Source of the DNA: Salinispira sp.
GTDB taxonomy: Bacteria > Spirochaetota > Spirochaetia > DSM-27196 > Salinispiraceae
Direction: 5' to 3'
DNA length: 64,000 nucleotides
NCBI GenBank assembly: GCA_965602015.1
Contig: OZ271918.1
Span: 1,824,001 to 1,888,000 of the forward strand
Of this stretch, positions 17,201 through 23,200 are shown one piece after another. Positions within the stretch are counted from its first letter, which is position 1; each line of letters starts with the position of its first letter. The position numbers were made by a program.

Positions 17201-20200
17201 TTACTATATTTGCGCCAATTTATTTAGCACGATTAGTAAAATTGCGTAATGTTTTCTGTGTACATTGAGAATAAAAATACAAAAAAAGCGGTGCATCGTA
17301 CATACGATGCACCGCCCTCTCTACAATACTGTTTTTTTATTGCGCTTACATCACTTCAAGAAAGGGTACATTTATCAGGTCGAATCCCGAGCGGAGGACC
17401 GCCCTTACCCCCCAAGCCAGATATAAGCGGGCATAACGCAAAGATTCATCGGGACAGTTAAGCACCGGGTGGTCGTGGTAAAAACGGGAAAAGGTCTTCC
17501 CCAGGTCGTAGAGGTATGCGGCGATTTGAGATGGATCGTAATCCGCTCCGGCGCTCTCCACCACCTCGGGGTAGCGCGCGAGGAGCTTCACCAACTCCCA
17601 CTCCTCGGGTTGCGTCAGGGACTCCCAACGGATTTCCTTTACGGGCGGAAGCTCGCTGTTGTACTTGCGAAACATGCTGGATATTCTCGCTCCAACGTAC
17701 TGAAGATAGGGACCGGTGTTTCCGTTGAACGAGAGGGATTCCCGGGGATTAAAAGTCATATCCTTTGCAGGGCTAATCTGCAGCAAGTAATAGTGGACGG
17801 CCGCCAAAGCAACCGCTTCAGCCGTTGCATCGGGATTCTCCAAGTCGGCGTCCCTGCCCTTTTCCCGGATTTCTTCCAGGGCCCCGTCATGCAGCTCGTC
17901 GAGAAGATTATCCGCATCCACAACCGTACCTTCGCGGCTCTTCATGCGTCCGTCGGGCAGGCTCACCATGCCGTAGGACAGATGGTATAGATTCTCAGCC
18001 CATTCGTAACCGAGTTTCTTCATTATGTGAAAAAGCACCCGGAAGTGATAATTCTGCTCGGACATAACCACATACACGAGTCTGGTAAAGGGCCAATCGC
18101 TGTGCCTGCTGATGGCGGTGCCGATGTCCTGTGTCATGTACACGCTGGTACCGTCTTTTCTCAGCAGCACTTTTTTATCGAGCTTAATGTCCTCCAGGTC
18201 GATCCAGATGGTGCCCTCTTCATCTTTATAAAAAGCTCCGTCACGCAGGCCCTGGAGCACGTTGTCCTTGCCAAGTTTATAAGTTTGATGCTCATAGTAA
18301 ATGTCGTCGAAGTGAATCCCCGTTCGTTTGTAGGTTTCTCCGATTCCGTCCAAGGCCCAGCGGTTCATTTTTTCCCAGAGCTCCAGGGTTGCCGGGTCTC
18401 CGGCCTCCCACTTCCCGAGCATTTCCTGGGACCGCCTCTCCGCATCCGGGTCGGAGGCAGCCATCTCGTTGTACTTAACATAGAAGTCGCCAACAAAGTG
18501 GTCGGACTTCCTCCCCTCGGATTCAGGGGTTTTCCCATCGCCGTGTTCGGCGTAGGCCAGCATGGAGCGGCAGATGTGAACACCACGGTCGTTTACCAGA
18601 TTGACTTTTTTTACCTCAGCGCCGTTCGCCTTCAGGATGCGGGCCACCGATTCCCCCAAGGCATTATTCCGCAGATGACCGAGATGAAGGGGTTTGTTGG
18701 TATTAGGCGAAGAAAACTCCACCATTATTTTTTCACCGGCAAATGATGATCCCCGGCCGTAGGCATCTCCCTGAACGCTCATGGCATCCAGGGTATCTTT
18801 GGCCAGGGCGGCGCGGTCAAGGCGCACATTTACATAGGGCCCGGCGGAAGCCGCCTCCATACCGTTCTCGCTCAGAGTTCGGGCGAGCTCAGCGGCGATT
18901 ACCGGAGGACCCATCCGCAAAATCTTGGCAAAAGGAAACATGGGAAATGCCAAATCCCCCAGCTGGGGATTCGGTGGGGTCTCCACCGCTATGAGCTCAA
19001 TAGGGACCGGGGTCTCGACATTCTTACTGTGGGCAAACTCGCTTATCGCCGCATGAACTGCGCCGATCATCGCTTCTTTGAAGGCTTTCATTTTGCAATC
19101 CTTTGGGTTATCTCCGCGTAGCTACACTAGGGAGCCGCATAAACGGCAAGCATGCGTGAGTAATTCTCGCTGCCGTCCTGCCGGTATGAAAATAAACCAG
19201 AATGGGAGACTGTGCAACTGTCCCAGATATCCAGGCGCTCCAGGCCAATCTCCGTCGCCAGGGCAGTATTTGCCGCCCGTAGATCGAGATAACGGCCCTG
19301 CGCGGCAACCAGGCCGAATCTCCGAGAAAAAAGGCCTGCGCGATCCTGGGAGACCTGGTATTTTTGTGCGGAAATACAGGGTCCGAGAACCACCCGGGCT
19401 CCTATCCGCCTCAGTCCGGCGGTACCGAACAGGCGGCGGAGAATGCCCGTGCCCGCCCAGCCCGAGTGCAATAAGGCCCGGGAATCGCCCTGAGTCGCAA
19501 ATATGGGCATACAGTCGGCTACGGTTACCGCCAGATGAAGAGTCGGATCATTCGTTACAATGCCGTCGGCCTCTATGCTGAGAAGATCAGCCCAGTTTTG
19601 GCGAAACTCCCGGGCATTCCAGCTAAAGAGCGGAACCGGGAGATGTTCAATATACTCGTTCTCCTTCCATGCCGCCCCCAAGAGGCTGATCTGCCGATTG
19701 CCTTCTGAGTCGAGTTCGATGGAAAGGATATTCATGCTGTGAATTTGCATTGTGGAAATAAGGGGAAACCTTCCGGAGGGTCGGGTATGAGGGAGAAAAT
19801 CCCCCAGAATCTCTTGTCTCCGCGGGGCTCCGGAAATGCCTGAAGGGCCGGCGTCGCCGATTTTTCTGCCCGAAAGAATCATTGTCGGACGGCGGTATCT
19901 GTCTGTCCGGTTATCGAGTATGTACCAACCGGCGAGGTCAATCAGTTTATTACTGCGATGTATCTCCACCTTGCCTCCAGCCCCGCAATGGGTAAACTCC
20001 GAGGATAGCCTTGACAAAGACTGTCCATCCAGCGATTGTATATACATACATGAATACGAATATTTTTGCATCAGCTTCCCGCAGCATCTCAACAATAATT
20101 GCCATTGCTCTCATTATTATTGACCGAAGCAGCTAAGCGGGGGCACATGCAGCGAGAAGCCGCTTCCCCGGGAAGCGGCTTTTTTTTGGAAAAAATATTT

Positions 20201-23200
20201 CTGCAGCCGGAACTATGTTAAACCCGGCGAGGAGGAACCATGGGCAGGAAAATAGCGATTTTTGATACAACGCTTCGCGACGGCATGCAGGGAATCGAAA
20301 TCAATTATACCCTGGAAGACAAACTTGAAATCGCCCAGCGATTGGATGCACTGGGAATTGATTACATCGAGGGCGGCTTCCCCATGAGCAATGAAAAGGA
20401 AGCAGAGTTTTTTCGCAGAGTGAAAACAATGAATTTCCGCCACTCGTCGATTGCAAGTTTCGGGTCCACCCGTAAAGCCGGGGGGTCGGCGGACAGCGAT
20501 GGCCACATCCGAGCCCTTCTCGAAGCGGAAACGCCAACGGTAGTGGTGGTGGGCAAGACCTGGACAGAACACGTCACCAAGGTCATCGGCACAGACCTGG
20601 AAGAAAACCTGAGGATGATTGCCGATTCCATCGGCTTTCTGAAAAAACAGGACCGCGAGGTGGTATTCGATCTGGAACATTTTTTTGATGGCTACAAGGC
20701 AAACCCCGATTATGCCATAAAAGTGCTTTCCGCCGGACGGGATGCCGGCGCCGACGTTTTGGTTCCCTGCGACACCAACGGGGGAACCCTTCCCCACGAA
20801 GTCCAGCAGATCTATCGGGACCTGGTGAGCGCCGGATTTGAAAATCTCGGCGGACATTTCCACAACGACTGCGGTACCGCGGTGGCGAATAGTCTCGCCG
20901 CTGTAAACGAAGGCGCGAACCACATACAGGGCACCATCAACGGCTGGGGCGAGCGCTGCGGAAACGCCAATCTCTGCGCCATTATGCCGAATCTCACCCT
21001 GAAAATGGATTACGAGGCCAACTGCAAACCTCACATGATGCACCTCACTTCAATGAGCCGATTCGTCGCCGAAAAAGCAAACATCATCCCGGACAAACGT
21101 CAGGCCTTCGTCGGCGTGGCGGCATTCTCCCACAAGGCCGGGCAGCATGCCGACGTCATAATAAAGGCCCCCCACCTCATGGAGCAATTGGACGGAAAGC
21201 TGGTTGGAAACTCCCGGCAGGTGCTGCTCAGCGAGCTGGCGGGCAAATCCACCATAATGGAAAAACTTAAAAAGTACGGTGATTTTTCTAAAAACGACGA
21301 TGTGGTTAAGCAGCTCATCGAGGAATTAAAGCGAAGGGAAAATGACGGCTATGAGTACGAGGCAGCCGAGGCGAGCTTCGATCTTCTAATGCGCAAGGCT
21401 CTCGGCAAATACACTTCTCTTGTTCAACTTAAGAATTATCATCTTGAAAGCTACAAAACCGCCAGCGCGCAGAGCCACACTGTCGGTCGGATGTTCCTCG
21501 ACGATGACGGAACCGAGGTGATGGGAGCCGCGGTAGGAGTGGGACCGGTGGAAACCCTGGACGGCGCCCTTCGAAACGCCCTGTATCCCCACTATCCCCT
21601 TTTGAAAAATGTCAAACTCATCGACTACCGCGTGAGGGTTCTCAACCCCGAGAGCGCATCGGCAGCGAAGGTCAGGGTTTTTATAACCAGTTCGGACGGA
21701 ACAAGGGACTGGGGTACCGTGGGGGTGAATGAAAACATCGTCGAGGCCAGCTGGGAAGCTCTTCTGGACAGTTTTGAATACTACCTCAACAACGACGTCG
21801 AGCCGTAATCTGTGCAGGGCGGCGGCAATTCTCCAGGGCCAGCCTGGAGGAAAAAGAACTCAATCGAGATTTTGCTGCTGTCGCCCTATCACGCCGCAAG
21901 CCACGCGTATTGGGCAGATCAGTTGATTTCGGGCATTCGAGAAATCCGGGGCGTTGCGGTAACATGGAATCTGCGTTCCCTGCCTCCCCGCCACTTCGCA
22001 TTTCGGCTCAAAGCAGCGCCCTTGAGCCTCTGGGATTATTTTTCAGAAAGCGGCCTTTGTGTTCCGGACTTGCTCATAGCCACCAGCAGCACTGACCTCA
22101 CTTCCCTTCGGTCCTGGTTCCCCGCTATGAGGGCTGTGCCATGCCTTTTATATTTCCACGAGAACCAGTTCGTCTATCCGCCCGGGGCCTACCGGAGCCG
22201 TGAGCAGCAGCGGGATTTTTGCCTTACTCAGCTCTATTCAGCACTGGCCGCCGACTGCATCGCTTTTAACTCCCGCTGGAACCGGGAAAGCTTTTTGGAG
22301 GGAGTCAACGGCCTGTTGAACGCCCTCCCGGAAGCCATGAGTCCCGGCATTTCGAAGATTCTCGAAGAAAAAAGCAGGGTCATATACCTGCCGGTTGCTG
22401 ACCCCCGCCTTGTGCCCGGGGAAAATGAGGCAGGCTCGGCTACCCGGCATGGAGATCGGCGGGATTCGGGCACCGCCGTACTGCAGATCCGGCCGCCAAC
22501 GCAGTTAACAGCTCGCACCAATTCCGTCCCCCATTTTATTTGGCCTCATCGCTGGGAATACGACAAGGGGCCGGGCACATTGCAGGAGTTTTGCCGAACC
22601 ATGGATGAGCAGGGGCATGATTTTCGCTTGAGTCTGCTCGGCCGCAAATTCCGCACTGTTCCCGGGGAAATCTCCGAGATACTTGAGGCCTATGCCCGCC
22701 AGATTGTGCGTGCCGTGCCGTTTGCCGATACGGCGGAGTATTACGGCTTTTTACGACACTGGGGCGAAACAGACAACAGCTGGGTAATTTCCACGGCCGA
22801 CCATGAATTTTTCGGGATTTCTGTGGTCGAGGCCGTACTTGCGGGATGTACTCCCCTGGTTCCCGACGGGCTTTCCTACCGGGAACTCATTGCCGAGCGT
22901 TGGAGATACGAATACCGCCGCGGCCAGAGTGAGAAAAGCCGGGCTCAGGCCATGTATAATCATTGGAAGAATCTCGAAATAACCCAGAGGTCCAAATCCG
23001 ACCCGCTGAGCGATCTGCTCATGGATCCCCGACCCTCCGCACGGCTTGAGGACTATCGCCTAATCATCGCGGATTTGCTGGACAGGGATTGTAATCATCA
23101 CCCTGAGCATTGAGCTTGATATCCATGGCCAGAGAGTTTAAATCGAGTACTCGAAGCGACGGCTCAGCTCAAGCCCGGGCATAAACCCCGGCAAACTCTG

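Follow-up and report, generated by a model that had tools for sequence, protein, structure and literature searches.

The leader-peptide attenuators of enterobacteria include ilvL of ilvGMEDA, ivbL, thrL, leuL and trpL. The underlying mechanism, classical attenuation, is decades old, and leaderless leader peptides have already been published for Actinobacteria. In Streptomyces lividans, ilvL, leuL1/2 and trpL1/2 encode such leaderless peptides, and hairpins with a U tract follow ilvL, leuL2 and trpL1, according to the consulted sections of PMC8079986. Mycobacteria carry leaderless polycysteine sORFs, and the cysteine systems act on translation, as described in bioRxiv 10.1101/834739. For the Mycobacterium tuberculosis ilvB1NC attenuator, PMC13236596 presents a model in which the antiterminator is masked once the ribosome has reached the stop codon.

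Here we analysed a window of 64,000 nucleotides from the genome of Salinispira sp., in which a ribosome-mediated transcription attenuator responding to charged Ile-tRNA very probably controls the cimA gene. The survey's finding of an uncalled 28-codon ORF and an intrinsic terminator 5′ of cimA was borne out, as the ORF (20050-20136, + strand, sequence MNTNIFASASRSISTIIAIALIIIDRSS) is followed by a hairpin with a T8 tract. The leader has eight Ile codons, one more than the seven counted in the survey, at codons 5, 13, 16, 17, 19, 22, 23 and 24. The six placed in its second half all lie within codons 16-24, which form the candidate regulatory run IIAIALIII (20095..20121, + strand; ATA ATT. ATT.. 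ATT ATT ATT), and the Ile run is in frame across orthologues. Of the 1004 5′ regions in the genome, 27 contain a short ORF with at least four Ile in nine residues, and the full rule combining promoter, ORF and terminator fired at seven genes, with an Ile-rich leader only at cimA. A 322-aa minus-strand ORF (first TTG at 20095) encodes a PgeF-like protein of which only the 3′ part matches the family; its overlap with the leader was put down to an over-long call.

By profile search, the gene 3′ of the leader (20240..21808, + strand, 522 aa) is citramalate synthase, with the enzyme activity predicted: its product scores 618 bits against TIGR00977 (cut-off 450), LeuA models give at most 257 bits, each under its own cut-off, and a separate LeuA elsewhere in the genome passes TIGR00970. 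No ilvA above cut-off was found in this genome, so the leader codons fit the pathway.

The leader ATG lies 33 nt 3′ of a TTGACA box (20011..20016, + strand), which together with a predicted -10 box GATTGT (20034..20039, + strand) at a 17-nt spacer would form a sigma-70-type promoter. Across 74 orthologous leaders, picked on position alone, a TTGAC-type box is found 29-33 nt 5′ of the start in 65 (the rule allowed 26-41), and 71 show the A2/T6 pattern with a spacer of 16-18, compared to a shuffled mean of 14.7. A generic consensus scan called neither the leader promoter (the -10 box matching at 3/6 positions) nor the terminator, and a genome-wide count of TTGACA-to-ATG distances was too noisy for a leaderless class to be made out.

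The survey had described the leader as lacking a Shine-Dalgarno site and as leaderless. The first point is confirmed, as pairing before the leader ATG amounts to -0.3 kcal/mol versus -11.3 kcal/mol for the strong GAGGAGG site of cimA. Across the family, Shine-Dalgarno pairing of -6 kcal/mol or better is found in 5 of 74 leaders versus 70 of 74 downstream genes. The second point holds for the family, which appears leaderless as judged from predicted -10 boxes, the leader start lying 6-8 nt past the box in 51/71 cases and mostly 6-10 nt past it family-wide. In this genome it needs qualification: the ATG is 10 nt 3′ of the predicted -10 box, transcription would start near 20046-20048, and with only some 2-4 nt preceding the ATG the leader would be near-leaderless.

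The survey had seen the leader in part of 20 order genomes; the recurrence stands, and its extent is wider. Of 93 order genomes, 77 carry the leader family (three seen only in part), 7 a different Ile attenuator and 7 none, and in the remaining 2 cimA is inside an operon. At least three Ile in nine residues are present in 73 of the 74 position-picked leaders, compared to 1 and 0 in the other two frames, and at least four in 60, compared to 0 and 0. The residues flanking the Ile run diverge freely, in agreement with the earlier observation that only this run is kept. One genome (G032) has a distant Leptospira-like CimA, whose best match, NF042433, is under its cut-off, and which is preceded by an Ile leader whose terminator differs. 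In a cross-phylum scan, three matches (L201, L205 and L253) looked on inspection like probable gene ends or chance matches and were dropped, and one (L249) is uncertain. The absence of an Rfam match was also confirmed, since positions 19900-20300 give nothing at gathering score (best 22.9 bits versus 40) and 14 related loci match no family at gathering score, including the Leu, Thr, Trp and His leader families, T-box and riboswitches.

The intrinsic terminator (20157..20187, + strand) consists of a stem (20159-20167/20171-20179), a CCG loop and the T8 tract. Its folding energy ranges from -15.8 to -22.1 kcal/mol depending on the bounds chosen, a range that brackets the -20.7 kcal/mol given in the survey. 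Two-sided changes are found in 8 of 11 consensus terminator pairs among 28 orthologues, and the fold of the whole leader has a z of -2.26, with 0/200 shuffles folding equally well. Two further segments of the + strand are predicted to take part in the switch. Segment 1 (20074..20082) is the partner of segment 2 in the minimum free energy fold of the untranslated leader and in a ribosome walk; against codon shuffles it reaches p <= 0.05 in 31 of 74 orthologues, and p = 0.09 in this genome. Segment 2 (20137..20144), right after the leader stop, is the candidate 5′ strand of an antiterminator and, in the ribosome walk, would pair with 20165-20170; the predicted helix has about -12 kcal/mol.

We propose that RNA polymerase would start a few bases 5′ of the leader ATG and that a ribosome would initiate on the leaderless or near-leaderless 5′ end. 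With plentiful isoleucine, the ribosome would reach the stop codon and cover segment 2, the terminator would fold, and transcription would stop before cimA. With scarce isoleucine, the ribosome would stall on the Ile run, at least 16 nt 5′ of segment 2, which could then pair with the emerging 5′ arm of the terminator, and cimA would be transcribed. In leader RNA that is not translated, segment 1 would pair with segment 2, leading to termination. In the ribosome walk, which assumes a 13-nt downstream footprint, the antiterminator stays stable while the ribosome occupies codons 22-26 and disappears when it is at codon 28 or the stop. Antitermination is also predicted for a ribosome on any of codons 3-15, so the Ile codons are not singled out by folding alone. 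With the full transcript at equilibrium the terminator wins for each ribosome position; the switch must therefore be kinetic. Caution in reading the cimA leader as an attenuator also comes from the Streptomyces coelicolor ilvB leader, in which mutating the candidate codons was without effect, as reported in the consulted part of PMC1262725.

We then considered whether a translated, Ile-sensitive leader could act chiefly by occluding the terminator as it is translated, or through a factor such as Rho or a protein, instead of the antiterminating 2:3 helix. The predicted antiterminator of this genome is not above shuffles (-10.5 versus -12.2, p = 0.71), only 35 of 74 family members do better than shuffles at p <= 0.05, and no competing fold comes near the terminator in stability. 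In addition, a column count on an unguided alignment gave 67% paired versus 64% shuffled, with a slid register scoring higher, and in genus g16 the leaders before lone leuA carry a Leu run with no terminator called. Because the pyrimidine tract changes register between genomes, we chose an alignment-free swap test, in which segment 2 pairs with its own terminator arm better than other genera predict in 69/73 genomes and 19/20 genera, compared to 40/73 genomes and 13/20 genera for a control segment. Furthermore, predicted segment 2 starts 10-21 nt past the last Ile codon in 72/74 leaders (the lower bound being fixed by the search design), and the Ile run ends at least 32 nt 5′ of the terminator, farther than a stalled ribosome can reach. 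These results make control by occlusion or a factor improbable. The competing structure claimed in the survey recurs across the order, and an antiterminator straddling the leader stop codon is supported family-wide by these pairing predictions, weakly so in this genome.

The codon content of the leaders follows the operon content. Counted as Leu per best 12-aa window, the 50 leaders of lone cimA have 0-4 (mean 1.5; a single one, G393, has 4), while the 23 leaders of leuA-headed leuA-cimA operons have 4-6 (mean 5.1); the leader selection rule and the threshold of at least four Leu were set after the first loci had been seen. Leader Leu codons track operon content with at least six changes on the cimA tree. 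On a tree of 40 proteins the operon state changes seven times, six of them forced, and of six independent pairs 5.7 on average go in the same direction and 0 in the opposite one (sign test, median p = 0.031, range 0.031-0.063). A first tree of 30 rows had only four independent pairs (p = 0.125); the larger one was obtained by removing ten rows, namely near-duplicates (G021, G034, G026), genomes with the leader cut off (G037, G015) and genomes with no leader (G003, G004, G006, G014, G029), and adding 20 new ones. Two genomes (G115 and G061) have Ile/Val/Leu leaders 5′ of ilvD-ilvB-ilvN-leuA-cimA, and Leu-run ORFs precede the lone leuA in G033 and in this genome.

This tracking also bears on the possibility that the ORF encodes a small hydrophobic, perhaps membrane, peptide with its own function, with the terminator ending its transcript and a fixed leak reaching into cimA. 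The Ile/Ala/Leu-rich stretch is hydrophobic, and leaders differ little in length from genome to genome (median 29 aa). A membrane segment would swap Ile, Val, Leu and Phe freely, whereas lone-cimA leaders have 21% Ile, 8% Leu, 4% Val and 1% Phe, and across the leaders Leu content tracks whether leuA is present. With no Pfam match for the peptide and no TTGAC-like box seen between the terminator and cimA in this genome, we regard this reading as very unlikely. Equally hard to sustain is an ATT-rich DNA or RNA site for a protein, or a ligand-binding RNA, in an incidental open frame: the nucleotide-level bias would suit it (ATT makes up 253/360 Ile codons in leaders versus 239/777 in cimA genes), but the Ile run is always in frame with the start just past the -10 box, ATT alternates with ATC and ATA, the Leu codons gained in frame by leuA-cimA leaders vary in sequence, and no Rfam riboswitch or T-box matches.

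Returning to the Ile-sensing attenuator, we lean towards the view that this leaderless sensor, orthologous throughout and tied to a fixed promoter, works as a re-tunable module. Its codon run would be rewritten between Ile-only and Leu plus Ile whenever the transcript gains or loses leuA, which in one order would have occurred at least six times, and leader deletion could hand the promoter-proximal start to cimA. If so, nature would have repeatedly run an experiment on the evolution of attenuator specificity, offering matched natural variants for testing the codon number and distance needed to respond to a second amino acid. Leaderless, transcription-coupled initiation would then be routine in free-living spirochaetes, of which we found no report. 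Leader Leu/Ile content also reveals the operon genes, giving independent support for cimA-versus-leuA annotation.

In the literature searched, which covered the papers themselves, we found none on a cimA attenuator or on an attenuator in spirochaetes; supplementary tables of genome-wide attenuator predictions may list these loci. The older comparative surveys by Vitreschak (2004) and Lopatovskaya (2010) may include such leaders as leuA entries. The leader family is uncatalogued in Rfam, and a search of the 15-billion protein collection did not find the exact leader peptide. In this spirochaete order, the attenuator would place the citramalate route to isoleucine under a concrete form of transcriptional feedback.

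With the actinobacterial leaderless leaders, the cimA leader would share a peptide encoded at the 5′ end of a leaderless transcript, 5′ of an amino-acid gene; it differs in phylum and sequence, and its transcript start is placed from predicted boxes rather than mapped. In PMC8079986, 'citramalate' and 'cimA' have 0 occurrences each, and none of these actinobacterial leaders precedes cimA. Like M. tuberculosis ilvB1NC and Listeria Rli60 (PMC5864092), the cimA leader combines a uORF of BCAA codons with a switch, here predicted, between terminator and antiterminator, and the masking of the antiterminator by a ribosome at the stop is proposed for it as for ilvB1NC. By contrast, ilvB1NC and Rli60 respond to all three BCAAs, act on acetolactate synthase or ilv-leu operons, and have been studied by experiment. 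Finally, the cimA leader has in common with the enterobacterial attenuators a short ORF in which pathway codons form a run, the predicted 1:2, 2:3 and 3:4 segment pairings, an intrinsic terminator, and multivalent codons for multi-pathway operons, but it differs in its putative Ile-only sensing, its target cimA, its lack of a Shine-Dalgarno site and its start at the promoter.

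Ahead of the 522-aa cimA ORF (from 20240) we found a TTGACA -35 box (20011-20016) and a leader ORF, MNTNIFASASRSISTIIAIALIIIDRSS (20050-20136), all recognised by sequence, followed by a GC-rich hairpin with a T8 tract (20157-20187) that sequence and folding mark as a terminator. The survey's finding had described an Ile-rich ORF with seven Ile codons; the enrichment stands, but our recount gives eight, six of them within codons 16-24. The leader region folds with z = -2.26 and the terminator hairpin at -15.8 to -22.1 kcal/mol, a value set by the bounds chosen; across orthologues, 8 of its 11 pairs show two-sided changes. 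A generic consensus scan called neither the promoter nor the terminator of the window, Rfam gave no gathering-score match for this region or for 14 related loci, and the leader peptide is absent from a collection of 15 billion proteins.

The 522-aa protein scores 618 bits with the TIGR00977 citramalate synthase model, above its cut-off of 450, and passes none of the LeuA models; a separate LeuA is encoded elsewhere in the genome. The ilvA model TIGR01127 reaches at most 99 bits in this genome against a cut-off of 379; of eight PALP-family matches, none of the five scanned rose above an ilvA cut-off, and inspection by eye took the remaining three for TrpB and two cysteine synthases. Given established knowledge and because no ilvA exceeds its cut-off, citramalate synthase is likely the entry to isoleucine synthesis here. 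Three nt past the cimA stop begins a glycosyltransferase gene (21812-23113, + strand) with an N-terminal tRNA-queuosine alpha-mannosyltransferase domain (PF12038, E 4e-44), which may lie on the same attenuated transcript; among 110 loci, many short-flanked, it was found next to cimA only in this genome and G002.

Next we examined how widely the leader occurs, using a rule that takes the strongest terminator at most 380 nt from the first synthase gene and an ATG or GTG 26-41 nt past a TTGAC-like box with a stop near that terminator. The rule is position-only and blind to amino acids, and was fixed after the first loci were seen. It picks out 74 leaders, of which 73 belong to the order and one to family f13. 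The order sample comprises 93 genomes (95, minus G341 with no match and G371 and G381 with the gene start missing, plus G036), of which 77 carry the leader family: the 73 called, G027, counted outside the rule, and three partial cases (G015, G037, G380) with Ile run and terminator present and the leader start cut off. The 77 include G032, despite its differing synthase and terminator: there a Leptospira-like CimA (L111:2070-3587) follows an Ile leader whose terminator is of another kind, and no TIGR00977-type cimA was found. Seven genomes of genus g16 carry a different Ile attenuator, seven others have no leader, and in two cimA is internal to an operon whose head lies outside the count.

In g16 (G018, G033, G364-G368; L044, L045, L135-L139), the Ile attenuator lies within ilvB-ilvN-cimA, ahead of a divergent cimA (44-45% identity to the window's in two measured), and is apparently unrelated to the order's leader family. 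Its peptide ends III. Since the leader start overlaps the apparent ilvN stop (as ATGA in five of seven, with TTG in one), the sequence suggests that translational coupling replaces the leaderless start. The lone leuA of this genus (L050, L117, L188-L191) follows a long Leu-rich leader ORF ending ILLLSLL with hairpins downstream and no terminator called, where translational control is possible.

Among the 60 of 151 cimA-bearing genomes looked at across the phylum, a leader stood directly before cimA in two (G252 and G127, both in f13, where G069 adds a third case). Seven had ilvD-ilvB-ilvN-leuA-cimA, and the two of these operons that were traced to their head carry an Ile/Val/Leu leader plus terminator there; no leader was seen in 51, some with cimA inside operons. 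Beyond spirochaetes, an Ile-rich ORF with its terminator immediately precedes cimA in 7 of 77 loci, and one further locus is uncertain; five of the seven share one terminator type (labelled four Thermodesulfobacteriota, one Myxococcota). The Desulfobacteria-like L198, L211, L237, L239 and L245 form a separate pre-cimA leader family; they have in common a terminator of the AATCCGTTA type, and show an Ile run followed by a Leu (or Val) run.

A short ORF with at least four Ile in nine residues occurs in 27 of 1004 5' regions of the window's genome; the full rule fires at seven genes there, with an Ile-rich leader only at cimA. In the true frame, 73 of the 74 leaders have at least three Ile in nine and 60 at least four, against 1 and 0 (at least three) and 0 and 0 (at least four) in the other two frames. 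These counts include non-independent kin; they span 20 genera, and the non-Ile residues diverge. Of the Ile codons in the leaders 70% are ATT, versus 31% in the cimA genes, and CTA accounts for 39/195 of leader Leu codons versus 49/1345; we infer that codons which are rare or read by wobble may make the sensor sharper. Further promoter-proximal leaders of the window's genome lie upstream of 691980 (-), 3104067 (-) and 3678524 (+) on contig C1; they comprise an LLL leader for leuA, a WWW leader for trpE and, ahead of a gene of 347 aa, an FFFFF ORF with a terminator.

The leader starts 29-33 nt past the -35 box in 65/74 cases, and an A2/T6 -10 pattern with a 16-18 nt spacer is found in 71/74 (shuffled mean 14.7, maximum 24). 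The distance from -10 box to leader start is 6-8 nt in 51/71, and 10 nt in the window's genome and its two congeners. Shine-Dalgarno pairing of -6 kcal/mol or stronger is present in 5/74 leaders versus 70/74 downstream genes. Because the start sits just past the -10 box and the Shine-Dalgarno is mostly absent, the family is predicted from sequence to be leaderless and the window copy near-leaderless (2-4 nt). In G004, G014 and G022 (L005, L029, L047), leader and terminator are absent and the cimA ATG lies 29-30 nt past TTGACA, as if cimA had taken over the leaderless start. The gap between promoter and cimA is longer, and contains GAGG, in G029 and G036. In G006 the place of the leader is taken by a tRNA-Asp gene (L116:3764-3839), which lies downstream of the TTGACA promoter and stops about 13 nt short of the cimA ATG.

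To model the RNA switch, we let the ribosome mask the RNA out to 13 nt from the A site and ended the RNA at the terminator loop. Without translation, segment 1 (20074..20082) pairs with segment 2 (20137..20144). With the ribosome on codons 22-26, 20138-20143 pairs with 20165-20170 (-13.6 kcal/mol), a helix lost (-4.1) at codon 28 and the stop; the same antiterminator also forms at codons 3-15, and at codons 16-21 another helix engages the terminator arm. In the full transcript at equilibrium the terminator is favoured at every ribosome position, therefore the choice must fall during transcription, as in classical attenuators. Taken alone, the window antiterminator is not better than shuffles (p = 0.71); among orthologues it beats them (p ≤ 0.05) in 35/74 (median -19.3 vs -13.3). 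A swap test set the pairing of each segment 2 with its own terminator arm against an additive expectation from other genera: the own arm paired better in 69/73 genomes and 19/20 genera, versus 40/73 and 13/20 for a control segment taken from upstream of the promoter. In a column-by-column count on the MAFFT alignment the antiterminator scored 67% paired against 64% in shuffles, and a shifted register scored higher.

Some genomes of the order have leuA between leader and cimA. The lone-cimA and leuA-headed arrangements have one and the same divergent gene as neighbour (a match at 60 of the 93 loci tested, with both arrangements represented), and on that ground promoter and leader are probably orthologous between them. 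This conserved neighbour stands head-to-head with the cimA promoter (L007-L030 and later loci); for the stretch of it that was tested the window's genome gave no match, and pgeF occupies the position there. Leu numbers 0-4 (mean 1.5) in the best 12-residue window of the 50 leaders before lone cimA, and 4-6 (mean 5.1) in that of the 23 leuA-headed ones, G344 being placed here by its leuA; per whole peptide, G344 left out, the ranges are 1-5 versus 4-9. The lone-cimA leader of G393, with 4 Leu, is an exception. Both operon states occur within genera g10 and g14, and a 40-row cimA tree, which cannot separate leuA gain from loss, needs seven state changes, six forced by well-supported branches. 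With a threshold of at least four Leu, picked after the data were seen, on average 5.7 of 6 independent pairs are concordant and none opposite (median p = 0.031, range 0.031-0.063). Outside the order, Ile+Leu leaders precede cimA with leuA downstream (L198, L237, L239, L245), an Ile+Val leader precedes cimA-ilvD-ilvB (L211), and L264 has Ile alone.

Collectively, the frame-specific Ile run, the terminator, the swap test and the Leu content that tracks leuA make the isoleucine-sensing transcription attenuator proposed in the survey's finding the best reading, and the leader very probably senses Ile-tRNA. Three other explanations fit less well, chiefly because Val and Phe do not replace Ile in the leaders, the run keeps to one frame and Leu follows leuA. 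Control without a true antiterminator helix is improbable; that the ORF encodes a functional hydrophobic peptide, or that the region is a binding site with an incidental open frame, is in each case more improbable still. As the S. coelicolor ilvB leader illustrates, where mutation of the candidate codons is reported in PMC1262725 to have had no effect, attenuator anatomy is no guarantee of codon sensing.

The leader is real, well conserved and of classical kind. The available portions of PMC1262725 and PMC12452182 hold nothing on cimA leaders, and main texts, with subscription papers thinly covered, yielded no cimA attenuator and no spirochaete attenuator; this one is apparently uncatalogued. 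The aspect of value to the specialist is that the sensor codons were retuned repeatedly; the mechanism is a textbook one with leaderless precedents, and not new in itself. The enterobacterial ilv, thr and leu attenuators have the same way of working as the cimA leader. As far as the accessible parts of the reports describe them, the Mtb ilvB1NC leader (PMC13236596) and Listeria Rli60 (PMC5864092) work alike, and leaderless leader peptides are known in Streptomyces (PMC8079986) and mycobacteria (10.1101/834739).
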